Part shown: in pieces, positions 1,576 through 48,936 of the stretch
Layout: each line of letters opens with the position of its first letter
How positions within the stretch are numbered: the stretch's first letter is position 1
Source: a virus
Lineage: Duplodnaviria > Caudoviricetes
Direction: 5' to 3' (one strand)
IMG/VR virus record: IMGVR_UViG_3300009120_000072
Location: 1 to 53,294 of that record
Length of the DNA stretch: 53,294 nucleotides
Translations under genes and position numbers: made by a program
The notes under the pieces: model-generated
Database searches by the model: none
Seen by the model: only the letters and a program-made list of their open reading frames with translations
Told to the model about the DNA's origin: nothing

Positions 1576-1925
1576 GGGGGTGTCTTGGTTTCGACAGGAT
1601 TTCGTTTGATTCAGGGTGCAGTGGTGTGGCTACCTAAAGGCTAAAAAAATAACTGGAAACAGACTTTCTTTCGCTGCTTAATTAGCAACTAACAAGCTAT
1701 CAGCGCGTCCGGTACGGCTTTCCCATTGGGCCATACCCTGACGTCAGAAACGATGGGTAAGTGCAGAGTAGTTCGCTCAGCGAGGCTGCATCGACAATCC
1801 AGTGAGCAAATCAACGCTTGTTTGTCTATTTCTTAAGGGTTGATCAAAAGCAAATAGAATAAACTGTAGACCTCTGAATGTGGGACACTTCTTGGACAGG
1901 AGTTCAATTCTCCTCACCTCCACCA
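1576..1925 (+). ncRNA. ssrA: tmRNA
   Basis: 5' GGGGGTG...TTCGAC and 3' T-arm AGGAG-TTCAATT-CTCCT followed by CACCTCC-ACCA; acceptor stem with the G3:U alanine determinant; internal tag frame. Confidence 0.97.
1655..1681 (+). other. tmRNA proteolysis tag reading frame (A)GNRLSFAA*
   Basis: ATAACT resume context, then GGA AAC AGA CTT TCT TTC GCT GCT TAA. Confidence 0.9.
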
Positions 1926-3445
1926 ACCTTATCTCTTGTCACTTCCTTTCCAGTGGAAGTGATTTTTCTATTCTTGGCTAGCGGATCAAGTTTGAAATCA
2001 ATTTTGACTTCATCGTCATAGATGAGGATTTTGTCTACTAAAGCTTCAATGATTTCTCTTTTAACGTTATCATCAGCGTCGTTTAGTTTGTCTCGCAAAT
2101 CATACATGAAAAATTTGATCTTCTCAATTTTCAAGTTTTCAAAAGCATCAACATTAATTTGTTTTAATCTTGATTCGTAATGGTCAATCTGTTCCTTCAT
2201 TGAGTTTGTTTTTTCAACGATAGTTTCTTTTGAAATATTTCCTTCCAAATACAAATCAAATAGTTTAGTAACTTGAGACTTTAACAAGTCTCTTTTTTTC
2301 GTTAAATCCTTGATCAAATCCTTATTGATGAAAATAGCCTTATCAGCAATGTTCAAAATCATATTGGCTAGTTCTTCTATTTGCTCGTTGCCTAAAATTT
2401 CATTTTTTATCATATCCAGAACGTAATTTTCAAGTAAATCAGCTCGAATCCGTTTATTTGTGCATCCTGTTTTTCGCTGGCTGGAGTTACAGGCATAGTT
2501 AAAATACTTTGTTTCTCTATCTCTTCCAAGCACATATGAACCACCGACATATGCGGATCCGCAAGATCCACAGAAGAGCCTTCCGGTAAGCAAATATACA
2601 CGAGTGGCATTCTTGCGTGGTTTACTGTTTTCACTCAGCTTTATCTGAACGGAATTCCATAGTTCATCTGATATGATCTTCGGTAATGCTCCTTCAATTT
2701 TTGTTATTTCGTTATCCTTTTTAAAAACTCGATTGCCGGTCTTTTTAGACATACGTTTATTAAAAACATAAGTGCCGATATATTTCTCATTTCGCAATAT
2801 ATCAAAAATACTGTTCTTTCCGAATGTTTTATTTAATTTAGTCTTGAATCCCTGTTCATTTAACGATTTAGCTATTGCACCATAACCATAACCATTTGCA
2901 TACATTTCAAAGATAATACGCACAGATTGCGCTTCTGCAGGGTTTAATGTATAAATCTGATCCACACCAACATCAAAGCCTAAAGGAGGCACACCGCCAT
3001 TGTGTAGCGCTTTGAGAGCGTTCTCGTTCATCCCTTTACGAACTTCACGTGCTAAATTCATAGAATAGTACTCAGCCATGCCTTCCAAGACTGATTCTAG
3101 GATAACTGATTCTGGACTATCATCCAGTTGCTCAAGAACTGATACAATCCGCACGCCATTTTGTTTCAGCTCACGTTTATAAAAAGCGCTATCATATCGA
3201 TTGCGTGCGAATCGATCCAGCTTGTGAACGATTACTGCCTGAAATATCCCGAGCTTTGAATCTTTTATCATTTGAATAAACTGCTCTCTTTTATCAGTTG
3301 TGGCACTCATGGCTTCATCCTGATAGATCCGGACAATGTCAAATCCGTTCTTATCACAATAAAGTTTGATCGCTCTTATTTGCGCATCGATGGATTCCTG
3401 TCGCTGGTTATCGCTAGAAAAACGAGCATATACTGCAACTTTCAT
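1904..3445 (-). CDS. Large serine recombinase (phage integrase)
   Basis: YARFSS catalytic Ser, KLDRFAR, recombinase domain, CGSCG zinc ribbon, coiled coil; last codons overlap the tmRNA. Confidence 0.96.
   Translation of the reverse strand: MKVAVYARFSSDNQRQESIDAQIRAIKLYCDKNGFDIVRIYQDEAMSATTDKREQFIQMIKDSKLGIFQAVIVHKLDRFARNRYDSAFYKRELKQNGVRIVSVLEQLDDSPESVILESVLEGMAEYYSMNLAREVRKGMNENALKALHNGGVPPLGFDVGVDQIYTLNPAEAQSVRIIFEMYANGYGYGAIAKSLNEQGFKTKLNKTFGKNSIFDILRNEKYIGTYVFNKRMSKKTGNRVFKKDNEITKIEGALPKIISDELWNSVQIKLSENSKPRKNATRVYLLTGRLFCGSCGSAYVGGSYVLGRDRETKYFNYACNSSQRKTGCTNKRIRADLLENYVLDMIKNEILGNEQIEELANMILNIADKAIFINKDLIKDLTKKRDLLKSQVTKLFDLYLEGNISKETIVEKTNSMKEQIDHYESRLKQINVDAFENLKIEKIKFFMYDLRDKLNDADDNVKREIIEALVDKILIYDDEVKIDFKLDPLAKNRKITSTGKEVTRDKVGGGEEN
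1914..1926 (+). repeat. attL core of prophage 1 (TCACCTCCACCAA)
   Basis: Identical to 36683-36695; corresponds to the tmRNA 3' end. Confidence 0.92.
1939..1967 (+). terminator. Phage-supplied terminator for ssrA, inside the integrase coding sequence
   Basis: TCACTTCC-8 nt-GGAAGTGA-TTTTT, starting 14 nt after the tmRNA CCA. Confidence 0.7.
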
Positions 3446-3446
3446 A

Positions 3447-4547
3447 TTAAGAATCTCGTAGCAAAGTTTTAATATAAAGTATCCAATATTTCATATGGAT
3501 AAAAGCCTCACTTAACTCAGTTATATCGATCCAGTGAACACTTTCCTTTGTTAAAACTTGAATCTGTTTTTTTCCTCTAAGCTTAACTCTTCCAAATTGC
3601 ATCTTGTTAATCTCAAAATTCAAAGTGCCATTCGACATACGTCTAATTTCTATTTCATCAACTATTTTATTCTCTTCTAGTTGCAACATAAGTCTATCGT
3701 AAAATTGTTTTTCTTCATCACTAAACGAGTTCATCAGTTGATTCCTACCATATTCCTTGAGTTCCTTAGTGTTAATGTAAATTTCTTTACAAGATTCAAG
3801 TAATTTATGTGTAGTGTAGCAATCATGAAGTGATCTATGCGAAGAGTAATCTAAACCTAAGTATTTTTTTATAGTTTCGAGTTTATGATTATTAAGGTTT
3901 GGGTAATACTGACGAGCGTAATCAACTGTATCAATTACCGGGAAATTTAGTTCAAAATCATCTGTCAACCCATTTATTGCAGAAACTAAGAACTTCAAAT
4001 CAAATTCTGCATTGTGAGCAACTAACGGTGATTCCCCTATCATAGTTACAACCTTCTGAATTACTTCATAGATTTTGGGTGCTTCAGCTATCATTTCATT
4101 TGTTATTCCAGTAATAGAGATAATCTCATTAGAAATCCTTACTTCTGGGTTAACTAATGTTGAAAACTCTTCAACAATTAAAGAGTTTTTGACTTTAATT
4201 AATGAAACTTCAATAATCCTACTTTTCACTGGTTCAAAACCTGTGGTTTCAAAATCAAGAACGACATATTCATCAGGGAAAAAATCCATATATTTTTGGA
4301 AAGTAAGTCGCTTAGGGAAGAATAAATTGTACCTGTAATTGATTTTACTTCCATCAATTTCATTTGCTACAGTACTTTTAATCCTTGATTTTGATTTATT
4401 TTTTTGTTTAATCAATATACTCACAATAGCAAAAAGAAACACAAAAAGAAATGCAAGAAAGAACTCACCTGCTATCAAGAGACTAACAACAATCAGAAAG
4501 TAAAATAATCTGAAAAGTATAATCATTATTTTTGAAATGGTTTTCAT
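3447..4547 (-). CDS. Membrane-anchored DEDDh 3'-5' exonuclease (DnaQ-like)
   Basis: Two N-terminal hydrophobic segments; VLDFETTG, VAHNAEFD, HRSLHD exonuclease motifs. Confidence 0.85.
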   Translation of the reverse strand: MKTISKIMIILFRLFYFLIVVSLLIAGEFFLAFLFVFLFAIVSILIKQKNKSKSRIKSTVANEIDGSKINYRYNLFFPKRLTFQKYMDFFPDEYVVLDFETTGFEPVKSRIIEVSLIKVKNSLIVEEFSTLVNPEVRISNEIISITGITNEMIAEAPKIYEVIQKVVTMIGESPLVAHNAEFDLKFLVSAINGLTDDFELNFPVIDTVDYARQYYPNLNNHKLETIKKYLGLDYSSHRSLHDCYTTHKLLESCKEIYINTKELKEYGRNQLMNSFSDEEKQFYDRLMLQLEENKIVDEIEIRRMSNGTLNFEINKMQFGRVKLRGKKQIQVLTKESVHWIDITELSEAFIHMKYWILYIKTLLRDS

Positions 4548-5167
4548 AGAGCCCTCCTTATTTCAACCACTTTTCCAACAATTGTAATAGGCAATAAAGA
4601 CATCTGATCTTTATTATAAAATGTCTTATTAAATAGAGGATTGAGAGGAATCAACGTAATGCCATCATCTTGTATTAATACTTTTTTGCAAGTTGCTTCG
4701 TCTCCGTTTACCTTTACAATAGCAATACTACCGCTATCGACTGAAGATTGCTGTTTTATGATTAGTGTATCACCATCCTCAATACGAGGATTCATAGAAT
4801 CTCCCTTAGCTTTCAAACCAAAGAACTCGCCTTTTTTCGACATCTCAGCGGAGATTTCTTCAAAATCTATAATATTTTCTATAGCACTTATTGGAACGCC
4901 ACAAGGCACTTCACCTAACACAGGGATCTTAATTCCGGTCGAATTTCTAAAAAAACTTTTATCTTCAGTAAGTTCTGATTTGTAAACTCCAAAATAATCA
5001 GCAATCTGCTGAAGCCGATCAATTCTAGGATATTTTCTTCCATTAACCCAATCAGACACTGTCGCTTGGCCAACTTGTAAATCATGAGCAATATCCATTT
5101 GTGTCTTATTATTAATTCTCATATATTTACCTAAGTTTCTAGAAAAAACATCTCTGTTTTCAATCAT
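4544..5167 (-). CDS. CI-like repressor, XRE HTH + S24 peptidase
   Basis: HTH (TQMDIA...TVSDW), PCG cleavage-site region, GDSM Ser and ATCKK Lys. Confidence 0.92.
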   Translation of the reverse strand: MIENRDVFSRNLGKYMRINNKTQMDIAHDLQVGQATVSDWVNGRKYPRIDRLQQIADYFGVYKSELTEDKSFFRNSTGIKIPVLGEVPCGVPISAIENIIDFEEISAEMSKKGEFFGLKAKGDSMNPRIEDGDTLIIKQQSSVDSGSIAIVKVNGDEATCKKVLIQDDGITLIPLNPLFNKTFYNKDQMSLLPITIVGKVVEIRRAL

Positions 5168-6682: not shown

Positions 6683-7513
6683 ATGAAGAAATCAGATATC
6701 CCAGCACTTCTTGATGAGTTTATCATCGAACTTAAATATCAAGAAAAAGCAGAAAGAACTCTTATGAAGTATCGAGCTGATGTGATTAAGTTCATAGAGT
6801 TTGTTCAGCACGATAATCCAATTAGCAAAGATGATGTTTTGGAATATAAGAAGTTTATCAGCTCCGGCCAGTATAAGCCTAGAAGCATTAATTCCTACAT
6901 TGTGGCATTGAATAAGTTCCTGAAATGGTGTGGTCAAGAAAATCTAAAAGTTAAGAAGTTAAAGATGCAGCAAAGGAATAGCATCGATGACATTATCAGT
7001 TTTAGTGATTATAAGCGACTGCTGCGATTTGCCAAGAAGCTTGGCTATGTAGATATCTTCATGATCATGAAGATTATCGCCACAACTGGCATCCGAATAA
7101 GCGAGTTGAAGTTCTTTACAGTCGAAGGGATTAAATCATTCTACATTCATGTGAGGAACAAAGGCAAAGACAGAGATATTATACTAACGCAAGAATTGGC
7201 AAGAGAGCTGCGCAAGTACTGCCGAGATCACAATATCAAATCTGGCCGGATATTCAATCTTGGCGATGTGGCTATATGGCGAAAGATGAAAAAGATAGCC
7301 GGTGCATCTAGGGTGAATAAAGAGAAGGTACACGCTCACAGCTTTAGGCACTTATTCGCAAAGGAATTTATGGCCGAGTACAATAATGCGCTGGAACTGG
7401 CCGACATTCTCGGTCATAGTTCACTAGAAACAACCAGGATCTACACACGATCGACAAACGAAGAGAAGCGTAAAAAGCTTGAAAAAATGAAAATCAAAGG
7501 AGTTAAAAAATGA
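6683..7513 (+). CDS. Second, Xer-like tyrosine recombinase in the early region
   Basis: TGIRISEL, NKGK, HSFRH, LGHSS..TT.IY catalytic R-K-H-R-H-Y set; no arm-binding domain. Confidence 0.93.
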   Translation: MKKSDIPALLDEFIIELKYQEKAERTLMKYRADVIKFIEFVQHDNPISKDDVLEYKKFISSGQYKPRSINSYIVALNKFLKWCGQENLKVKKLKMQQRNSIDDIISFSDYKRLLRFAKKLGYVDIFMIMKIIATTGIRISELKFFTVEGIKSFYIHVRNKGKDRDIILTQELARELRKYCRDHNIKSGRIFNLGDVAIWRKMKKIAGASRVNKEKVHAHSFRHLFAKEFMAEYNNALELADILGHSSLETTRIYTRSTNEEKRKKLEKMKIKGVKK

Positions 7514-9635: not shown

Positions 9636-10145
9636 ATGGAAAACTTAATAAATCACTTCTTCGAGAAAATGAATGAAGAAATGAAAAATGAACACTCGCC
9701 ACTTGAAGATAAAATTCATAACTGGCTATGTGATCAGGTTAATGACATTGAATTAATGCAAGCTGTAGTCATTGAAGGTAAAAGTATCAAAAGCGCTGTT
9801 CACTACTTTTTCGATAAGCTCGCAAAAGAATCAGTGAAGATAGGAAACAATGTTTCATACGCAGGTTGTTCTGACGATGAAGGATATGCAATCGTTCGCG
9901 AGTATTTCTTGAGCGACTTAAAAGAAGTGAAAGCAAGTCAACTGTACTCGGTTCAATCCAAAGGCAAAGAGCAAAAGAATCAACCAGTGGATGCCGAACA
10001 AAGTAAAGAAGTTGAAAAGCCGAAGAAAGTCGAAAAGAAGGCAAAACCGAAAAGCGATGATTTAATATCAATATTTGATTTTATCGATGAACCGGATGCA
10101 TCCGATGAAGAAGATGGCGAAGATGAAGAATCAGACAACGATTGA
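9636..10145 (+). CDS. PcfK-like protein
   Basis: GKSIKSAV, SDDEGYAIVREYF, acidic ISIFDF tail; precedes PcfJ; homologous to 47070-47585. Confidence 0.75.
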   Translation: MENLINHFFEKMNEEMKNEHSPLEDKIHNWLCDQVNDIELMQAVVIEGKSIKSAVHYFFDKLAKESVKIGNNVSYAGCSDDEGYAIVREYFLSDLKEVKASQLYSVQSKGKEQKNQPVDAEQSKEVEKPKKVEKKAKPKSDDLISIFDFIDEPDASDEEDGEDEESDND

Positions 10146-11607
10146 GCAGCTCGGAATTGAAATTCCACTTGAATTTGACATGACAGAACTGATCCGAAAT
10201 CATGCCAAGCATTATATGTTCCGGACCGGTAAAGAGTACATCTGTTCAAATTGCGGTTGTGTCGCTTTAGATGATTACTACCACTGCCCAAAATGTCATG
10301 TTGAACTTAATCCGAAAATCATAAGAAGCAATACAAACTACGAAAAATTGAACAAAGAGTTCTGGGTAATTAAACTTCAAAAGCTGTCGGATCGTATAGT
10401 CGAAAGATGGTTCATTGCTACACAAAAAATTAACAGACAATCATTGCAATTTGAAACATGGTATGAAGAAGTCGAGCGGAAAACCATTATGAATGGCCAT
10501 ACGAACATCATCAGAAAAGGATACTATCCGAATCCAAAAGAATGGCAGTTTGGCTACTACATGGATTCATACATGGGTAAAACACCAAGAAGAAAAATTG
10601 AATTGTATCCATTAAGAATGGATGAGTGGCTAAAAGACACAGAACTTCGATACACCACAATTGGAAATTATATTGACAATGAAAGTGAAAGAAAAATTAG
10701 CGGATATGGAGTACCTTCATACTGGGTATTTAACTACTTGGCATTTGCCGCCAAATATCCTTGGATCGAGCTATTATACAAAGCTGGTTTAAAAAAGTTG
10801 TGGAGAGATGTCCTGGCATCAACTGGTGGAACAATCGACATGCGTATATTCCGACCATCGATCATAAAAAAGTATCGGTCACAGTTAATTAAAATTGATG
10901 CTGGATATGCGCACTTCGCCGCAATACATTATTTCACAAAAAACAAGTTGGCATATGACTTGGAGTTAGTAAAGTCAATCAAAGATACAGTTGAAGCTGC
11001 TGATTTAATCAAAATAGCCAAAATCACAGGAATGACCATTTCAAAAATAAAGCGCTATTTGGATGAGATCGTTGGTACATGCGGTACAGGGAAAATGCAT
11101 TACTTTGACTACTTGGATATGACCGCCAAAATCTATAATAGTGAATTCACCGAGCAAATGGCATTTCCTAAAGATCTGATAAAAGCACATGATGATGCAG
11201 TTAAGAAATTCAACGCAATTAAACATGAATTAGACAACCAGGAATACAAGAAGCGGTTGGATCAGCTGAAGAAATTCAAATATCGCAATCAGCATCTGGC
11301 AATCGTTGTACCGATGAAACTTGAAGAAATCCTATTTGAAGGTATGAAGCTGAACCATTGTGTAGGATCATACATCGATCAAGTGAAGGCAGGCAAAAGA
11401 ACAATACTGTTTATCAGAAAAACGGATGATATGGAAAAACCATTCTTTACGATTGAATACTCCGGCGATCGAATCATCCAATGCAGAGGAAATGATAACG
11501 ATGATGCACCGGCAGAAATCAAAGAGTTCACTGAAGAATGGCAGAAGTGGCTGAAGAAGAGAAATCAAAAGAAAGGCGCAACGGTCGAACTATTGGCCGC
11601 AGCATAA
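10123..11607 (+). CDS. PcfJ domain protein
   Basis: YFDYLDM, FPKDLIKAHD, EGMKLNHCVGSY, ILFIRK, IIQCRG. Confidence 0.9.
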   Translation: MKNQTTIEQLGIEIPLEFDMTELIRNHAKHYMFRTGKEYICSNCGCVALDDYYHCPKCHVELNPKIIRSNTNYEKLNKEFWVIKLQKLSDRIVERWFIATQKINRQSLQFETWYEEVERKTIMNGHTNIIRKGYYPNPKEWQFGYYMDSYMGKTPRRKIELYPLRMDEWLKDTELRYTTIGNYIDNESERKISGYGVPSYWVFNYLAFAAKYPWIELLYKAGLKKLWRDVLASTGGTIDMRIFRPSIIKKYRSQLIKIDAGYAHFAAIHYFTKNKLAYDLELVKSIKDTVEAADLIKIAKITGMTISKIKRYLDEIVGTCGTGKMHYFDYLDMTAKIYNSEFTEQMAFPKDLIKAHDDAVKKFNAIKHELDNQEYKKRLDQLKKFKYRNQHLAIVVPMKLEEILFEGMKLNHCVGSYIDQVKAGKRTILFIRKTDDMEKPFFTIEYSGDRIIQCRGNDNDDAPAEIKEFTEEWQKWLKKRNQKKGATVELLAAA

Positions 11608-12576: not shown

Positions 12577-12683
12577 GGTCGAAAATATCAAAAAGTATTG
12601 CCTTCCGGAAACGTGCTGAAAATCCACTGTTCAATAGGGTTTCTGGCACGTTCCGGACATGTAATATAATTTAAGGGTTATTT
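12577..12683 (+). other. Conserved non-coding element, copy 1 (hairpin + dif/lox-like core)
   Basis: GGTCGAAAA..CAAAAAGTATT, stem TCCGGAAACGTGC/GCACGTTCCGGA, loop CACTGTTCAA, then AATATAATTTAAGGGTTATTT; homologous to 45017-45123. Confidence 0.75.
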
Positions 12684-12715: not shown

Positions 12716-13342
12716 ATGGCATTAAAAAATGAAGAGATTGAAGCTGGTATAAAACGAAAAAACGAGCTGAATTCATTCTTGGAACGTTACGAAGTCAAAA
12801 GCAGAGAATTTGCCAACCTGTGTAATTTAGCTGAACAAAACATGTATGCATACCGGAAAGGCGGATCCAGAATCACCGATAAAATGTGGAAGATCATGCA
12901 AGCAGCCATGAAGAAGTATGAAGCTGAAAATATAGTCAACGGAAAGAAGTATCAGATCCTGCTTGATGACTTCATCAAAAGATACAAAGTACCAATTCAT
13001 AAGCTTGCGGTGTATTCGGATATCACCGAGGAAGGTATCAGAAACTACTTGTCCGGCACTTGGGCGATTACCGATCGGAAGTGGTTATACATCAAACAAG
13101 CAATGAAACGGATAAAAGAAGAGAACTCGAAGGTTGATCGCAATAAGCGGCCAAACCTGGTGCTTGATTACATGGTCAAAAACTTAAAAGAACATCACAA
13201 CACAATAGTCATGAAGAAACATTGTGCGCATCGAGAAGATGAATTGCTGGATCAGTTAGCCGCAGCCGGATGTGATTGCAACATGACCGATACAGAATCC
13301 GATCACTACATGCTTGAAATCAAAGGGAGGTGGAATAAATGA
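12716..13342 (+). CDS. Protein with two tandem XRE-like HTH repeats
   Basis: Repeated unit Y.V....A....Y..G...ITD..W....AMK. Confidence 0.65.
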   Translation: MALKNEEIEAGIKRKNELNSFLERYEVKSREFANLCNLAEQNMYAYRKGGSRITDKMWKIMQAAMKKYEAENIVNGKKYQILLDDFIKRYKVPIHKLAVYSDITEEGIRNYLSGTWAITDRKWLYIKQAMKRIKEENSKVDRNKRPNLVLDYMVKNLKEHHNTIVMKKHCAHREDELLDQLAAAGCDCNMTDTESDHYMLEIKGRWNK

Positions 13343-13548
13343 TAAAGCCGGAATTCATGCAGCAATATTGGCAATGGTTATATGAAGATGGTGACTGGTA
13401 CATCAGCCGCACAGTACACAGCAACTTCACAACGGATCTAACAAACATGCAAAGTGGCAACTGCTTCGAAAGTTATAAAGAATGTGCAGCGCATCCAGAG
13501 GTGCGTGATCGCCTGGCAAAACACATCGTAAAGGAACCAAAACTATGA
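13339..13548 (+). CDS. Hypothetical phage protein
   Basis: ATGA-coupled ORF with GGGAGG RBS. Confidence 0.6.
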   Translation: MIKPEFMQQYWQWLYEDGDWYISRTVHSNFTTDLTNMQSGNCFESYKECAAHPEVRDRLAKHIVKEPKL

Positions 13549-14102
13549 ACATGAAAGATTATCAATTCAAATCTATGCGGACATTTCCGCCGCAGCTGAA
13601 CGAAACAAGAATCGAGAACGGAGTCATCGGTCTATTCGGTGAAGGCGGTGAAATCGCAGATCTGTATAAAAAGTTTAAGTATCAAGGACATCCGATGAAC
13701 CGAGAAAAAATGATCGAAGAATTAGGTGATGTATTATTCTATTGCGCAATGATTGCAACCGGTTTGAGAACAACGCTTGATAAGGTTGCAGATCAAAACA
13801 TCGAAAAGCTGCTAAAAAGATATCCGGATGGCTTCACACCAGAACGAAGCATGAACCGAGAACCGGAACCGCCGGTGGTGGAAATCGTCGAGGTAGAACA
13901 AGAAATTATTGAGGTAGATAAAAGGCTTGCAAGCCAGCTCATTGAGAGCAGATCGCCTGAAGGCTTATTCTGGATCAAAGAAAATAATAGATATATCGGT
14001 ATCGATAATTCAATGGGTGAAGCATGGGTAGAAGAATTCGATAGTTATGAAAATATGAAAATATGGCTAATTGGCGGAAAGGCGTTCGAACATGAAAGAT
14101 AA
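13545..14102 (+). CDS. MazG-like nucleotide pyrophosphohydrolase with C-terminal extension
   Basis: GLFGEGGEIAD, EELGDVLFY, NIEKLLKRYPDGF. Confidence 0.9.
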   Translation: MNMKDYQFKSMRTFPPQLNETRIENGVIGLFGEGGEIADLYKKFKYQGHPMNREKMIEELGDVLFYCAMIATGLRTTLDKVADQNIEKLLKRYPDGFTPERSMNREPEPPVVEIVEVEQEIIEVDKRLASQLIESRSPEGLFWIKENNRYIGIDNSMGEAWVEEFDSYENMKIWLIGGKAFEHER

Positions 14103-36758: not shown

Positions 36759-37817
36759 CTACTTTTTTCTGATTGAGTTGATTACATCTGCGCTTTTCTG
36801 ATCGATATTTCTTAGTGCATGTGCATATACTTTTGATGTTATATCAATACTAGAATGTCCCAGTCTTCTTGAGACTGTTATCAGTGGAACATCAGCATCT
36901 AAAAGTAGAGAACCATTGCTATGACGTAGTTGATGGATTGTAATCTTTGGTCCACCATATTTACTGACCGCTCTTTCAAAATGTCTTGTAATTGAAGTGT
37001 CTGCGAGTGGCTCAAAACCGCCAAACAGAAACGGGCCATCAGTTTTCAATAGTGGTTTTAACGATTCAAATAGTTCGTCATCCATCTTTAACACCCGATG
37101 ACTTTTAGGTGTTTTTAGACTAGATAACCCTTCGAGACTTCTTGTGGCACCGTGTGGCAAACTTTTTGATATTGTTACTGTCTTGTTAGTTATATCAATA
37201 TCTGTTTTTAGTACAGCTCGTGTTTCCGCTCTTCTTGTTCCCAAATAATAACTAAATTCGAAATATTTTCTAAGAGTATCATTCTCAATGAATGTTAGAA
37301 GATGCTCAAATTGCTGGGGATCTATCACTTTTGCTTCGGTCTTATCTTCAAACGTCAACTTAAATCTCTTGAGAGACTTCGCGGTATCTTTTATATCATA
37401 GTCTATATACCCAAAAGATGTTATTGCTCGAATAATATCAATAGTGGAGTTCATTGTTCGAGTTGCGATTCCGAAATCAGTCAGCGACTCTCTCCACTTT
37501 TGGAGTTTTTTCGCATGGATTGGCAACTCAAGCTCTAGTATTTCTCCGGCATAACTTCGAAGTCTCGCTTTTTTCTGTTGTATAGTATTTTCATTTGCAT
37601 AGCCTTTTCGACTTGAGAAGTATCGTTCAGCCAAGCTACCTAAAGTGAATTTATGCTTTACTTCGCCATGATCAACTCGATAATTTGCTTCCCAATTTTG
37701 AGCTTCTCTCTTTGTTTCAAATCCTCTTTTCTTAATCGAACGAATTTTCCCTGTTGCATCACGGAAGCGAATATCTGCATACCATTTTTTTGTTTGTGAA
37801 TCTTTATAAGTGGCCAC
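36759..37817 (-). CDS. Tyrosine integrase with arm-binding domain
   Basis: KKRGFETKREA arm domain, GTRRAE, LKT, HQLRHS, LGHSS...VYAH. Confidence 0.95.
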   Translation of the reverse strand: MATYKDSQTKKWYADIRFRDATGKIRSIKKRGFETKREAQNWEANYRVDHGEVKHKFTLGSLAERYFSSRKGYANENTIQQKKARLRSYAGEILELELPIHAKKLQKWRESLTDFGIATRTMNSTIDIIRAITSFGYIDYDIKDTAKSLKRFKLTFEDKTEAKVIDPQQFEHLLTFIENDTLRKYFEFSYYLGTRRAETRAVLKTDIDITNKTVTISKSLPHGATRSLEGLSSLKTPKSHRVLKMDDELFESLKPLLKTDGPFLFGGFEPLADTSITRHFERAVSKYGGPKITIHQLRHSNGSLLLDADVPLITVSRRLGHSSIDITSKVYAHALRNIDQKSADVINSIRKK

Positions 37818-41205: not shown

Positions 41206-41823
41206 TTACACTCTTTTATTAATCACTAACACCAATTTTCCAATCACTCTGAATGAAATCGTATTTGGCGTTACCAATTGAGGTAAATAGTTATCATTAG
41301 CAGGTTGTAAAGTAATTATACCAGAAGCCTTATCTTGATAAAACTTCTTGCATGTTGCTTCGTTGTGATCTACGCAGAAACATCCTATTTTCCCATCTTC
41401 AATCACATCTGTTCTTTCAAACACTAATAAGTCTCCGGGTATGATATTTTCGCCAATCATTGAATCCCCTTGAGCATATTGACAAAAGTATTGCTTTTTC
41501 GGATTCAATAATGAACTAGGTAATGTAACATACTCTTCAATCAAGTCATCAAGAAATGTTGCAGAACCGCATGAAATACTTGAGTATTGTGGAATCTTTA
41601 TGAAACTATATTGATGTTTTTTTACTTGACTGAAAACAAGGTCATCTACAGTAACACCAAAACGCTCAGCTAGTAATTCTACCATCCCCATGTTTGGTTC
41701 TGTCCTACCAATCTCCCATGATGATATGGTTTTACCACTAATTCCTAAAAAGTGTGCTAAGTCATCTTGGCTTAAACTTCGAGACTCTCTCAGCTTCTTC
41801 AAGTTATCTTTAAAGTGAATCAT
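41206..41823 (-). CDS. CI-like repressor, XRE HTH + S24 peptidase
   Basis: LSQDDLA..TISSWEIGRTEP, SCG, GDSM, ATCKK; start set at MIHFK. Confidence 0.92.
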   Translation of the reverse strand: MIHFKDNLKKLRESRSLSQDDLAHFLGISGKTISSWEIGRTEPNMGMVELLAERFGVTVDDLVFSQVKKHQYSFIKIPQYSSISCGSATFLDDLIEEYVTLPSSLLNPKKQYFCQYAQGDSMIGENIIPGDLLVFERTDVIEDGKIGCFCVDHNEATCKKFYQDKASGIITLQPANDNYLPQLVTPNTISFRVIGKLVLVINKRV

Positions 41824-41848
41824 TATATCACTCCTCTTGTAATAATTA

Positions 41849-41953
41849 TACACATAATGTAGTGGACTGCAAATAGAAATTTGTGTTTAACAATTAAAAT
41901 GTATACAAAATGTAGATAATGATGTTGACAATCTACAATATGTAGAATAAAAT
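41849..41953. promoter_or_regulatory. Prophage 2 genetic switch: promoter and 15-bp operators
   Basis: TTGACA(41925)-17 bp-TAAAAT(41948) with TCTACAATATGTAGA (41932-41946) in the spacer; variants at 41849 and 41902. Confidence 0.8.
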
Positions 41954-44188: not shown

Positions 44189-45010
44189 ATGAACAAAAAT
44201 GAGATGGAATCCAAACTTGCAGATTTCATTTCTGAACTGAAGTACCAGGAAAAATCGACTGCAACCTTATCAAAGTACAAAGCAGACATCACGAAATTCA
44301 TAGAATTTATTGATCATAATGAACCGGTTACTAAGGACGACACATTAGCCTACAAGAACTATTTGTTTGAAGCATCTTATCTGCCTCGAAGCATCAACTC
44401 ATATGTAGTTGCATTGAATAAGTTCTTGTATTGGCTCAATCTAGGCGAGCTGACAATCAAAAAGCTTAAGATGCAACAGAAGTACAGTATCGATAATGTG
44501 CTAAGTCCAACTGACTATAAGAGGCTTCAGCGCTACGCAAAATTGCTTGGTTATGAGGAGTTGGCAATGATCATGAAAGTCATCGTAAGCACCGGTATAC
44601 GTGTCAGTGAGTTGAAATTTTTCACTGAAGAATCGATCAAGTCATTTTATATTCACGTCAGAAACAAGGGTAAGGATCGCGATATCATCCTTACCCAAGA
44701 ACTGGCCCGGGAACTTAGAAAATACTGCAGAGAGAACAAGATAACCAAAGGGTACGTATTTAGTTTGTCACCTAAACAGATATGGTATCGTCTTCAAAAG
44801 ATAGCTGCTTTGGCGAGAATCAACAAGGACAAAGCACACCCTCACAGTCTGCGTCATTTATTCGCTAAAGAGTATATGAGCACTTTCAACAACCCTTTGG
44901 AGCTGGCAGATCACTTAGGTCACAGTTCACTGGAAACCACAAGAATCTACTCTCGAACGACGAATGAAGAGAAGCGCAAAAAGCTTGAAAATATGTCAAA
45001 AAAGCGTTAA
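44189..45010 (+). CDS. Second, Xer-like tyrosine recombinase in the early region
   Basis: TGIRVSEL, HSLRH, LGHSSLETTRIY; long identical blocks with 6683-7513 (IKSFYIHVRNKGKDRDIILTQELARELRKYCR). Confidence 0.93.
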   Translation: MNKNEMESKLADFISELKYQEKSTATLSKYKADITKFIEFIDHNEPVTKDDTLAYKNYLFEASYLPRSINSYVVALNKFLYWLNLGELTIKKLKMQQKYSIDNVLSPTDYKRLQRYAKLLGYEELAMIMKVIVSTGIRVSELKFFTEESIKSFYIHVRNKGKDRDIILTQELARELRKYCRENKITKGYVFSLSPKQIWYRLQKIAALARINKDKAHPHSLRHLFAKEYMSTFNNPLELADHLGHSSLETTRIYSRTTNEEKRKKLENMSKKR

Positions 45011-45016
45011 AAAACA

Positions 45017-45123
45017 GGTCGAAAAAAGGCAAAAAGTATTCAACTCGAAAAACGCACGAAAAACGCACTGTTTAAGCATAGTTTCTGAGCGTTTTGCGAG
45101 GGAATATAATTCTAGGGTTATTT
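45017..45123 (+). other. Conserved non-coding element, copy 2
   Basis: GGTCGAAAA..CAAAAAGTATT, stem CTCGAAAAACGC/GCGTTTTGCGAG, loop CACTGTTTAA, then AATATAATTCTAGGGTTATTT; begins 7 nt after the recombinase stop. Confidence 0.75.
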
Positions 45124-45166: not shown

Positions 45167-45361
45167 TTGGTGACTGAATTGCTTAAAAATAAAGGCACAC
45201 TTCCATGTGATCGTTGCGGCTGTTGGACCATTCTGAAGCCATACGATAACAGATTGCTTCTGTGTGATGATTGCATTCCAAAACAGGCAGAAGGTGATTC
45301 AACGAGATTTGAAATCATACAATTGAATATCGATGAGGAGATAAGAAATCATGGAAAATGA
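45167..45361 (+). CDS. Small zinc-ribbon protein
   Basis: KNKGTLPCDRCG...LLLCDDC; homologous to the 14385 N-terminus. Confidence 0.7.
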   Translation: MVTELLKNKGTLPCDRCGCWTILKPYDNRLLLCDDCIPKQAEGDSTRFEIIQLNIDEEIRNHGK

Positions 45362-45605: not shown

Positions 45606-45753
45606 GCATTGTGATATTTGTGCATTCAACAATGAGGGTTTCTGCGAGTTTCATGTGAGGTTTACAGCTTGGATGTTTTCAAACTACTGTGATCAGTTTA
45701 AGGAAAGAGGAACAGATAATCAAATGCAAGTTGAAATAGTGGAGGTTGAGTAA
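45598..45753 (+). CDS. Small Cys-rich protein, not in the ORF track
   Basis: MNKHCDICAFNNEGFCEFHVRFTAWMFSNYCD; GGGGAGG RBS; TAATG-coupled to the next gene. Confidence 0.78.
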   Translation: MNKHCDICAFNNEGFCEFHVRFTAWMFSNYCDQFKERGTDNQMQVEIVEVE

Positions 45754-46277
45754 TGGCACAACGACGAATGTTTGCACAAACCATTATTGACTCAGATGCA
45801 TTCCTTGATATGCCAAATACTTCCCAGCTTCTGTACTTTCATCTGGCTATGAGAGCAGACGATGATGGGTTCATCAACAAGCCTAAGGGAATAATGAGAA
45901 TTGTCGGAGCCAAAGATGATGATTTGAAAGTCCTGATCACAAAGAAATTCATCATACCATTCGAGTCCGGTGTCGTGGTTATAAAGCACTGGAGAATCCA
46001 TAACTACATCCAAAAAGACAGATACATTGAGACAAAATACAAGGATGAAAAGTCACAACTTGACTATGATGAAAACAATGCATACAAGCTTTTGGATACA
46101 GAATGTATACATAATGTACACGAATTGGAGACTCAGGTTAGGTTAGGTAAGGATAGGTTAGGTAAGGATAGTAATAATAGTAGGACATTCGTCCAACCCT
46201 CTCTAGAAGATGAGCCAACCAAGGAGATAATAGATCGAAAGAGTCTGATTGAGAAAATTAAGGGGGAGACGAAATGA
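45753..46277 (+). CDS. Replisome organizer, N-terminal domain only (short)
   Basis: MAQRRMFAQTIIDSDAFLDMP, very similar to 7795-8571 up to QVRLGKD; GGTTAGGTAAGGATAG repeats. Confidence 0.85.
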   Translation: MAQRRMFAQTIIDSDAFLDMPNTSQLLYFHLAMRADDDGFINKPKGIMRIVGAKDDDLKVLITKKFIIPFESGVVVIKHWRIHNYIQKDRYIETKYKDEKSQLDYDENNAYKLLDTECIHNVHELETQVRLGKDRLGKDSNNSRTFVQPSLEDEPTKEIIDRKSLIEKIKGETK

Positions 46278-46858: not shown

Positions 46859-47073
46859 AAGAAAGTGCCGGAAAGGAACGAGTTAAGGATGATTTGAAAG
46901 ACTACAATGGCAGAACCATTTCATTGGGAATGAAACTTGTAGATAAGTGGGGTGAAGTTGGAGCAGTTGAACACAACAATAACAGGGTTCACTGGGTAAC
47001 TAAGAATGGAACATACTGGTTAGGTACTGCGATCATCGAAGTATGGCAACTGACCATCAAGGAGGAAAAATGA
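46855..47073 (+). CDS. Hypothetical phage protein
   Basis: ATGA-coupled; LKDYNGRTI resembles a YopX-like segment. Confidence 0.5.
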   Translation: MKESAGKERVKDDLKDYNGRTISLGMKLVDKWGEVGAVEHNNNRVHWVTKNGTYWLGTAIIEVWQLTIKEEK

Positions 47074-47585
47074 AAGAAGCTCTTGAGAAACTAAATCAAG
47101 AAATGAGTGCGGAGCATTCTAAGGTAGAAGATGCCATTCATAATTGGCTTTGCGACCAAACCGACAATACAGAACTGATGAACGCAATTCTGATTAAAGG
47201 TAAAACCATCAAATCGGCAATGGGTTATGTAATGAAGAAAGTCAAAGAAGCTTCTAAAGGCAACATGGCCATGATGACTGACGACGAAGTATTTCCTTTG
47301 GTTCGTGATTATTATTTTAGTAAGGATAAGGTAGTCAATCATGATCCAAGTGTTCAAGTGACAATGGCTGCCGAACCAAAACCGACGGTTGAGAAAACCA
47401 AAGAGAAGCTTGTTACGGAAATCAAAATATCTCTTGATAAGAAATCAAAACAATCTCTTGAAACGATTATGCGACTTGAGGTGAGTGACGAAGAAAAGTT
47501 ACGAATGATCAGTTCGCTAAATCAGCAGGAAGAAGTCGTAGAGGAGAAAAAAGAAGATGAAAACTTGTCCTTATTCGATTTCTGA
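47070..47585 (+). CDS. PcfK-like protein
   Basis: EDAIHNWLCDQ, KGKTIKSAM, TDDEVF..VRDYY, LSLFDF tail. Confidence 0.78.
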   Translation: MKEALEKLNQEMSAEHSKVEDAIHNWLCDQTDNTELMNAILIKGKTIKSAMGYVMKKVKEASKGNMAMMTDDEVFPLVRDYYFSKDKVVNHDPSVQVTMAAEPKPTVEKTKEKLVTEIKISLDKKSKQSLETIMRLEVSDEEKLRMISSLNQQEEVVEEKKEDENLSLFDF

Positions 47586-48936
47586 ACTAGTAGAAAATCG
47601 GTTTACACTACCCTACGACTTTGAAGATTATCTTCAATCGAAAACTGTCGGAGTTGAGTATTCCAGGCGAGGTGAAGCAATCGTTACTAACAGACATATA
47701 CCCGGAAGGGAAGTCGTTATAAAGCAACTGAGATCAAATTCAAACCTAAATAACCAAATGTGCAGATTTTATGTAATTGTGTTGCAATGTGATGAAACCA
47801 AAATCGAAGAGCAAACCTATTATGTGACTCGCCTTTTCAAAAGAACAGACATAAACTCGGTTAAAGAAATATTTGATATTCAATTGTGGAATCTTAAAGT
47901 ATTGCAAAACAACGAAATCATTAAAATCCATCTTGCATACGATTATGCCAAAGGTGGTTATACTTACCAGTTTGGTACTAACTCGATTATGCACATGGGT
48001 TATCAATCATTGAATATTTACGATTATCATCACCCAAGTGTTCTCGAATACTCGGAAATGAAATATACGCAAGTTTGGGAAATAGAACGTTTTAATCTTG
48101 AATTATCATACAAATATCGTAAGATGCTGGAAATGTTACTGAAGAATGGTTGCACAAATTTATGGGAAGATGTCGCCAAAGGGTATAGTGACATGCGAAA
48201 AATGACTAAAGGGAAGTTGATGAAAAATCGCACGATTCTCAAAAAGTTCAATCCGGATCATCATCAATGGGAGTGGTATCCAAAACTTCTTAAGTTGGGA
48301 TTAACCATAGTACTATCAATGGAAATATCAAAAAGGTGGACAAGCTACGAAATTGAGAACCAAATAAAAGGCGCAGCAACTCTTAGCATTGAGACCAAGA
48401 CACTAATGAAGTATTTACTTAAGCAGAACCAGGAATTCAGACACTATAACGATTACCTGGAAATGATGATAAAACTAAATACTCCAGTTGAGACATACCA
48501 AACCATGTTTCCAAAAGATTTGAAAAAAGCCCATGATGAAGCTGTCAACAAATACAACACAATGAAACATGAGTTTGATTCTAGAACCTATTCATCAAAA
48601 ATATTGCCAGTCATAGAAAAACTAGAATATACCAACAACGAGTATGCAATTATCGTACCCAAGGATCCAGATGAGATTTTGCAAGAAGGGAAAGCACTGG
48701 ATCACTGCGTTGGTTCATACATCGGCCAAGTGCTTAAAGGCGAAACAATCATATTGTTTATCCGAATGGCAACAGAAACCTCAAAACCACTGTACACAAT
48801 GGAATTCAAATACGGAAGAGTAAACCAAATCCGTGGCATTGGAAATAAGTCTGCACCAGACTCTATAAAAACGTTCGCCGACCAATGGCGTAAGAAGAAA
48901 GGTAAACTATGCAAATCATTATCTATTGGTTATTAG
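47557..48936 (+). CDS. PcfJ domain protein
   Basis: YNDYLEM, FPKDLKKAHD, EGKALDHCVGSY, ILFIR, QIRG. Confidence 0.9.
   Translation: MKTCPYSISELVENRFTLPYDFEDYLQSKTVGVEYSRRGEAIVTNRHIPGREVVIKQLRSNSNLNNQMCRFYVIVLQCDETKIEEQTYYVTRLFKRTDINSVKEIFDIQLWNLKVLQNNEIIKIHLAYDYAKGGYTYQFGTNSIMHMGYQSLNIYDYHHPSVLEYSEMKYTQVWEIERFNLELSYKYRKMLEMLLKNGCTNLWEDVAKGYSDMRKMTKGKLMKNRTILKKFNPDHHQWEWYPKLLKLGLTIVLSMEISKRWTSYEIENQIKGAATLSIETKTLMKYLLKQNQEFRHYNDYLEMMIKLNTPVETYQTMFPKDLKKAHDEAVNKYNTMKHEFDSRTYSSKILPVIEKLEYTNNEYAIIVPKDPDEILQEGKALDHCVGSYIGQVLKGETIILFIRMATETSKPLYTMEFKYGRVNQIRGIGNKSAPDSIKTFADQWRKKKGKLCKSLSIGY

Follow-up and report, generated by a model that had tools for sequence, protein, structure and literature searches.

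What accompanies the second tyrosine recombinase of phages that already carry an integrase? Here we describe an intergenic element of ~107 bp that occurs exactly once in each of the two prophages lying in tandem in IMG/VR virus record IMGVR_UViG_3300009120_000072 (Duplodnaviria; Caudoviricetes), whose full 53,294 nucleotides are the window analyzed here. The element is a DNA-level feature. Its family comprises 181 hits on IMG/VR contigs, of which 137 are distinct; it is almost always intergenic, is present in one to three copies per phage and is the conserved partner of an accessory, Xer-like tyrosine recombinase, with which it co-occurs—and which it often abuts—across about 100 viral contigs. 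An initial annotation of the window had proposed such a pairing of recombinase and noncoding element from the two copies at hand, and the wider family bears it out. We tentatively favor, at a little short of even confidence, a reading in which an early or middle promoter lies within a core site of Xer/cer type at which the accessory recombinase would act.

Under this reading, a sigma-A-type early/middle promoter, with its TATAAT box and a start at a conserved GG, would overlap a Xer/cer-type core whose arms, TGCAATATAA and TTATnTTGCA, flank an 8-bp center, and ~85 bp of A-tract-rich accessory sequence with a lineage-specific inverted repeat would precede that core. The phage's second, Xer-like recombinase would bind the arms and join like-centered sites on sister or co-resident phage genomes. 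The outcome would be resolution or formation of multimers, or exchange of the flanking modules, and bound recombinase would occlude the promoter, giving autoregulation. Promoter activity, binding by the recombinase and recombination at the element are what we infer from the comparisons that follow; the comparisons themselves establish the family, its anatomy and orientation, its linkage to recombinase genes and the distinct centers of copies that share a genome.

The element family and its recombinases

How constant is the element, and where is it found? Relatives were collected from two sides. On the recombinase side, 29 relatives (the A3 family) were aligned, 80 viral loci were fetched besides 3 close relatives, and an element profile was iterated twice with nhmmer over 81 recombinase loci. 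On the element side, a pattern scan of viral contigs returned 96 stretches with 88 new loci, of which the profile confirmed 79 and left 9 as chance matches. The near-invariant parts of the family are AAAAA(G/C)TAT, an A-run ~12 nt further on, and TGCAATATAA-(T/C/G)N7-TTATnTTGCA, inside which TATAAT is itself near-invariant. About half of the sequences were gathered by a pattern fixing AAAAASTAT and ATATAAY-N5-GGTWAT, so that conservation at those positions is inflated; the recombinase-derived set displays the same conserved blocks. The ~60 nt between the blocks are variable; in many copies, though not in all, they include an inverted repeat that differs in position and length from lineage to lineage. 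The internal blocks GAAAA, CACTGTT.AA and GTTTCTG, initially annotated as conserved, are common to the window's lineage (including L006) but not to the wider family.

Within the window, the 3' block AATATAAT-N3-AGGGTTATTT has two exact matches (chance expectation 0.23 at ≤3 mismatches), and ATATAA-N8-TTATWT occurs in the two elements alone (0.03 expected); the position and sequence of both copies were as first annotated, down to the 7-nt spacing between the prophage 2 recombinase stop and copy 2. At the DNA level, three versions of the element matched nothing among GenBank phages and PLSDB plasmids except for a single 29-nt chance match. Among viral contigs, the exact pattern of the 5' block had no matches and that of the 3' block had two, both judged chance on inspection. 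A pattern scan of genome contigs matched an unrelated sequence, one identical and apparently coding stretch of ~175 bp in 29 genomes (L009–L037) of very different gut taxa (Lachnospiraceae, Oscillospiraceae, Phascolarctobacterium and a Prevotella MAG); this stretch is presumably part of a widespread mobile element, and the scan is uninformative about the element in cultured genomes. Keyword searches of the literature on accessory recombinases in phage early regions and on the motif returned nothing about the element.

Diverged relatives were also seen. L115, counted as a miss, has a diverged copy ~15 nt past its recombinase stop, and in L047 (3225–3345), whose recombinase is 50% identical, the 5' block is followed by a different 10-8-10 dyad. 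This L047 dyad is a perfect palindrome with arms ATGTAAACAT and ATGTTTACAT, in which the family geometry is kept and the arms differ; the order at that locus is recombinase, clear intrinsic terminator and a AAAAAAGTATTG block with a TTGCAT-17-TACTAT promoter-like pair. L097 (8110–8195) and its relatives have, in the stretch that separates the element from the start of the recombinase gene, a small conserved hairpin, CACCTG-AAA-CAGGTG, with an A-rich tract and then the ribosome-binding site after it.

Element and recombinase are linked from whichever side one begins. Within the flanks available, the element was found in 63 of the 81 recombinase loci after the first nhmmer iteration and in 69 after the second, and the A3 family is encoded by 51 of the 72 distinct element-bearing records (28 of the 34 that are at least 90% complete)—a co-occurrence that the initial annotation had put forward as a check on its proposal. 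Wherever both share a locus, the element lies on the recombinase's strand (135 of 135 pairs co-oriented). They are ≤100 nt apart in 73 of these 135 pairs (not de-duplicated), the element standing either after the recombinase stop (+9 to +55) or before its start (−4 to −85). Of 79 element-derived loci, several of which can come from one record, 47 have the long recombinase, 17 a 223-aa PF00589 recombinase and 15 neither within the fetched stretch; in the 17 loci without the long type, the 223-aa protein begins directly after the element. Six of the 34 near-complete records lack the long family, and most of the element-bearing phages without it carry the unrelated 223-aa recombinase, which in L181 is encoded at 831–1502. 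In a terminase-anchored sample, 7 of 31 records had the element, 6 of these 7 had a recombinase frame of 275–287 aa and none of the 24 element-less records did, a co-occurrence that is not independent because the 7 element-bearing records are the closest relatives. Among the distant terminase relatives (G080–G102), many lack the element but have short PF00589 frames of 165–240 aa, and small accessory tyrosine recombinases seem common in the wider phage group.

What kind of protein is the accessory recombinase? Both prophages were initially said to encode a second tyrosine recombinase besides the integrase, and both proteins were recovered: ~275 aa long, located in the early regions and 64% identical to each other, they match PF00589 (5e-16; 5.5e-16 for the prophage 2 protein) together with the N-terminal SAM-like domains PF13495/PF02899. 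Residues R138, H219-x-x-R222, H245 and Y254 are invariant among the 29 aligned relatives, as are K160/K162, and, judging from their positions, R138, H219, R222, H245, Y254 and K160/K162 would make up the catalytic set. The family profile matches the Protein Data Bank (PDB) structures of XerA (4a8e and 5hxy) and XerD (1a0p) over nearly their full length; XerA is the best profile match, with residues 11–274 of 292 covered in 4a8e. No NCBIfam equivalog cutoff was reached for orthology to XerC, XerD, XerS or XerA, the best-scoring model being XerA-type (139.5 vs. a cutoff of 220; XerC, 83.7 vs. 335; XerD, 78–95 vs. 330; XerS, 58–60 vs. 267). The protein has the predicted makeup of a simple Xer-type tyrosine recombinase, with catalytic and SAM-like core-binding domains in ~270–300 aa. 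It comes on top of an integrase in four of five complete records examined; G011 showed the short recombinase alone.

Probable promoter, dyad and hairpin

Does the element contain a promoter? Five positions of the −10 hexamer, T94, A95, T96, A97 and A98, are each kept in at least 131 of the 137 distinct copies, part of this set having been gathered with a pattern that requires ATATAAY; the −7 position is T in 100 copies, C in 35 and G in 2. At −12, 131 of the 137 copies retain T, whereas the partner of this base in the dyad (pair 88–105) is free, being A in 56, C in 36, G in 34 and T in 10, which is the asymmetry that a −10 box overlaid on a dyad would give. A conserved GG follows TATAAT by ~5–7 nt, at the expected start. 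In 117 of 140 contexts, a same-strand open reading frame (ORF) begins ≤60 nt beyond the right arm, compared with 323 of 715 random positions (45%). The gene upstream of the element runs in the opposite direction in L006, L096, L097, L099 and L106, and the downstream genes therefore need a promoter there. Conservation of TATAAT beyond the dyad's need, close ORF starts and divergent gene contexts strongly indicate a promoter, and we hold it likely that the element contains one. The presence of a promoter leaves room for a recombination site in the same element.

Other readings of the same blocks were considered as well. Spo0A-box, LexA-box and alternative-sigma interpretations were set aside on mismatches to the family consensus. 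As a terminator, the central hairpin fared no better: four elements had no plus-strand terminator, and one weak minus-strand candidate was found in copy 2.

The core itself consists of two ~10-bp inverted arms around an 8-bp center, which is the geometry of Xer/dif/cer-type sites. The TAA-N8-TTA dyad pointed out in the initial annotation is real and forms the inner part of this family-wide 10-8-10 dyad. Across the family, the dyad is 84.5% paired, compared with 26–48% for slid controls, and 15 cells are altered on both sides, a count that none of 500 shuffles reached; in L040 (CCGATAA/TTATCGC), L066 and L115, both arms are altered together. It is plausible that the dyad is the site of the neighboring Xer-like recombinase.

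Might the element instead act through a fold? It had been annotated as a long imperfect hairpin whose outer stem differs between the two copies yet still pairs, and had been likened to the folded substrates of integron integrases. One could accordingly picture a structured RNA or single-stranded DNA (ssDNA) hairpin, transcribed or extruded, that the recombinase would use as substrate or cofactor in the manner of attC, or that would act as a leader regulating in cis. The window copies do form long hairpins with stems that differ and still pair, and that of copy 1 is exceptionally stable (−31.4 kcal/mol, z = −4.05). That of copy 2 is unremarkable (−22.4 kcal/mol, z = −1.46), with 14 of 200 shuffles equally stable. 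Among the central regions of 118 distinct sequences, the plus strand was more stable in 76 and the minus strand in 38 (P = 0.0013, with sequences that are not independent), and recurrent U-G wobbles on the plus strand can be read from the alignment of the L096 group. However, RNAalifold found no consensus pairs among 68 representatives (<85% mutually identical; input a MAFFT alignment, not structure-aware), the place and length of the hairpin depend on the lineage, and L040, L042, L051, L074 and L076 fold better on the minus strand. Conservation is of sequence (AAAAASTAT, TATAAT and GGTTAT) rather than of pairing, 29 of the 68 representatives lack the pair at the mid-stem position of the dyad, and the likely transcription start comes only after the hairpin. 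In Rfam, the element matched no family at gathering thresholds (whole window and four loci, where the tmRNA alone was found) and gave chance-level matches alone at E ≤ 10. The integron-integrase model stays far below its cutoff (44.6 vs. 265 bits), there is no conserved end-to-end pairing, and the analogy to attC falls with them. With a variable middle, no consensus pairs and a weak strand asymmetry, a hairpin with a covarying outer stem is not a feature of the family; the stem differences between the two window copies reflect lineage-specific inverted repeats, not a family-wide fold. We consider a role as structured RNA or ssDNA improbable.

Copies within one genome and competing explanations

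How do copies that share a genome differ? Among 24 distinct multicopy sets with 26 pairs, many of the sets coming from one clade, no pair shares its 8-nt center (0 of 26), the left arms are 100% identical, and identity in the variable region is 76% within genomes vs. 55% between genomes. In genomic order, TATAAT (T-type) precedes TATAAC (C-type) in 21 of the 24 sets, and one set has T, C and G types. Distinct centers in otherwise homogenized copies may reflect selection on heterospecific recombination sites or, as another possibility, a −7 base that tunes graded promoter strength. The units between copies are multigene and span 2–5 kb. The smallest bracketed unit, of ~2.4 kb, is found in L110 (1075–3606) and L203, where T-type and C-type copies flank the recombinase gene. 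An extension of the favored reading, which we regard as unlikely, is natural cassette exchange: with up to three sites that have identical arms and T-, C- or G-type centers and border lysogeny, replication and accessory modules, an early recombinase would swap modules between co-resident or co-infecting relatives without internal deletion, and the site would double as each module's promoter.

The element's surroundings are mosaic. Each of the upstream context types in the L096 group (at least five were seen) occurs with both recombinase types downstream, and this shuffling places the element at a recombination hot spot. Site-specific insertion of cassettes at the center was rejected on the single break point that could be placed (L067 vs. 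L068), and homologous exchange within or beside the conserved block explains the mosaicism equally well.

Several observations weigh against a promoter embedded in a recombinase core site. On the recombination side, the identity of L067 and L068 is 100% up to a point ~8 nt beyond the right arm, which places the junction outside the center; polymorphisms, as read from the alignment, reassort over the whole length of the element; and copies that stand as direct repeats in one genome, were all of them active, would be prone to deletion. The window copies keep the inner 6 + 4–6 bp of the dyad alone. The same dyad precedes two recombinases, the long and the 223-aa types, that are just 27% identical over 146 aa, and the arms therefore do not track recombinase identity. 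Prophage 1 is an exception to the linkage, its copy lying 5 kb downstream of the recombinase, past the replication genes; a remnant of the element after that recombinase's stop was searched for and not found. Co-occurrence in general is confounded by relatedness. On the promoter side, no −35 hexamer at 16–18 bp is conserved family-wide, scans of four elements giving weak, differing or no candidates, and the −7 base of second and third copies is C or G (TATAAC and TATAAG).

Could the element, then, be a promoter with operators and nothing more? In this, the main alternative, possible but rather doubtful, an early/middle promoter would carry a dyad and an inverted repeat that are operators of another phage or host regulator, and the recombinase would be a syntenic neighbor, frequently first or last in the operon alongside, that acts elsewhere. 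All of the promoter evidence applies here too, and the alternative sits well with an identical dyad in front of such dissimilar recombinases, with one to three co-oriented copies per genome at operon boundaries, with mosaic junctions at the element's edges rather than its center and with the six near-complete records without the long family. The variable inverted repeat is common to the copies in one genome, as expected if they were operators for a single factor specific to that phage. Set against this, the recombinase abuts the element far more often than expected for one of ~12 early genes, and where the long family is absent, another tyrosine recombinase holds its exact place. An 18-bp center-to-center dyad suits tyrosine recombinases better than typical helix-turn-helix dimers, to which it is a poorer fit. 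TATAAC and TATAAG are poor −10 boxes, yet the remaining arm is invariant in copies 2 and 3, and in the L096 group the inverted repeat does not covary with neighboring repressor-like genes.

The element's neighborhood also brings to mind other kinds of DNA site—an origin of replication or a site at which the neighboring replication module would load its primosome, or else a packaging signal. It adjoins replication genes, which it precedes in prophage 2 and follows in prophage 1, and it is A-tract-rich with inverted repeats. However, the replication modules that it borders, on one side or the other, are unrelated to each other (DnaD/DnaC-like in the window; RepL-like and DnaB-like in L181), and it has no iterons, lies far from terminase genes and reaches three copies per genome. 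Such a role is very improbable.

The window's prophages and related systems

Which phages carry the element? In the window, the two prophages differ in their integrases, a large serine recombinase in prophage 1 and a tyrosine integrase in prophage 2 (Table 1), and both encode Ant-type anti-repressors. The named relatives of the LemA protein in the host flank are Erysipelotrichaceae/Erysipelothrix metagenome-assembled genomes (MAGs), as are those of the accessory recombinase; 24 kb of prophage 1 had no match by megablast. Among the sequencing runs listed for the sequence there is no RNA run, and the DNA runs contain small shares of it as contigs. The carriers look like a lineage of uncultured Erysipelotrichaceae-type temperate phages.

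Table 1. Element copies, their parts and other features of the window (positions in the 53,294-nt stretch)
Feature	Position	Strand	Remarks
tmRNA gene	1576–1925		Beside the tandem prophages
Large serine recombinase	1904–3445		Prophage 1 integrase
DEDDh exonuclease-like gene	3447–4547		Prophage 1; directly after the serine recombinase
LexA-like repressor	4544–5167		Prophage 1
Accessory Xer-like tyrosine recombinase	6683–7513	+	Prophage 1; no adjacent element
Early-gene pair, phrog_7445 and phrog_8470/7484	9636–11607		Shared by both prophages; function unknown
Element copy 1	12577–12683	+	~107 bp; after the prophage 1 replication module
Copy 1, 5' block GGTCGAAAA	12577–12585		
Copy 1, 5' block CAAAAAGTATT	12589–12599		
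Copy 1, inverted repeat TCCGGAAACGTGC/GCACGTTCCGGA	12604–12616 / 12646–12657		Lineage-specific
Copy 1, 3' block AATATAAT-N3-AGGGTTATTT	12663–12683		
Copy 1, TATAAT	12665–12670		
Copy 1, dyad	12664–12669 / 12670–12677 / 12678–12683		ATATAA / center TTTAAGGG / TTATTT
First ORF after copy 1	12716–13342	+	208 aa; no family match; start 33 nt past the element
MazG-like pyrophosphatase	13545–14102		Downstream of copy 1
Tyrosine integrase	36759–37817		Prophage 2 integrase; 352 aa
LexA-like repressor	41206–41853		Prophage 2
Accessory Xer-like tyrosine recombinase	44189–45010	+	Prophage 2; 273 aa; PF00589, SAM-like N-terminal domains; stop 45008–45010
Element copy 2	45017–45123	+	~107 bp; 7 nt after the recombinase stop
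Copy 2, 5' block GGTCGAAAA	45017–45025		
Copy 2, 5' block CAAAAAGTATT	45030–45040		
Copy 2, inverted repeat CTCGAAAAACGC/GCGTTTTGCGAG	45044–45055 / 45089–45100		Lineage-specific
Copy 2, 3' block AATATAAT-N3-AGGGTTATTT	45103–45123		
Copy 2, TATAAT	45105–45110		
Copy 2, dyad	45104–45109 / 45110–45117 / 45118–45123		ATATAA / 8-nt center TTCTAGGG / TTATTT
First ORF after copy 2	45167–45361	+	64 aa; TTG start; no family match
DnaD-like replication gene	45753–46277		After small ORFs downstream of copy 2
Early-gene pair, phrog_7445 and phrog_8470/7484	47043–48936		Shared by both prophages; function unknown

If the recombinase acts at the site, these phages would hold a self-contained, phage-borne Xer/cer-like system within integrating prophages that already have an integrase, and the core site would serve as a promoter too, with naturally heterospecific copies at module borders. 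Such a system would offer a concrete, testable mechanism for mosaic module exchange and for how genome multimers are controlled ahead of packaging, both of which are usually put down to homologous or illegitimate recombination; new orthogonal recombinase/site pairs could come from it as well. If the element is a promoter alone, it would be a marker, a highly conserved −35-less early promoter architecture of an uncultured Erysipelotrichaceae phage lineage.

How does the element compare with known recombination systems? With integron IntI/attC, it shares a tyrosine recombinase and a site with conserved ends and a variable middle. Unlike an integron, it has no conserved hairpin, its intercopy units are multigene and 2–5 kb long, and the recombinases score 44.6–54.3 bits with the integron-integrase model TIGR02249, vs. 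the 265-bit cutoff. Cre/loxP of phage P1 likewise consists of a simple tyrosine recombinase, encoded by the phage, and a dyad site close by that has an 8-bp center. Lox sites with different centers do not recombine, and heterospecific lox sets have been engineered for cassette exchange. P1 is, however, a plasmid prophage with one loxP, whereas the element occurs in integrating prophages with up to three natural site variants.

Closer in architecture is cer/psi with XerCD. The passages on cer in a published account describe two ~11-bp half-sites around an 8-bp center (11+8+11) with the promoter Pcer inside (PMC5357621). To the extent of that description, the element is alike in its 10-8-10 core, its one-sided accessory sequence of ~85 bp upstream and its embedded TATAAT. 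It differs in that cer needs the host proteins XerC, XerD, PepA and ArgR, whereas the element adjoins a single phage recombinase gene; its accessory region is also about half as long, and its centers differ within one genome.

The modules XerS/difSL, XerH/difH and archaeal XerA/dif likewise combine a single Xer-type recombinase with a dyad site. According to the portion of the same account that treats XerS, the xerS gene directly adjoins difSL as a single module (PMC5357621). In the relevant excerpt on Pyrococcus abyssi XerA, the dif oligonucleotide tested has arms that end in ATATAA and begin with TTATAT around a 6-bp spacer, the same inner arms as in the element (PMC2958812). These modules resolve chromosome dimers and have a single site on each replicon, close to the terminus, whereas the element has a center of 8 nt rather than 6 (XerA) or 11 (XerS), adds a promoter and an upstream accessory block, and accompanies phage proteins that score below the equivalog cutoffs.

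A further counterpart is TnpI/IRS of Tn4430, whose TnpI is presumably similar in size to the phage accessory recombinase. As characterized in the cited extract, IRS is a 116-bp site in which an inverted-repeat core and adjacent accessory motifs give resolution selectivity (PMC2847244). The likeness, on that partial description, lies in a site of ~110–116 bp built from an inverted-repeat core and adjacent accessory sequence; unlike the element, IRS is a transposon site that resolves cointegrates, and its accessory repeats DR1 and DR2 repeat the core motif. By eye, no clear repeat of the arm motif is present in the element's upstream block. The element joins these known kinds—the cer, IRS and difSL modules—as a variant of them.

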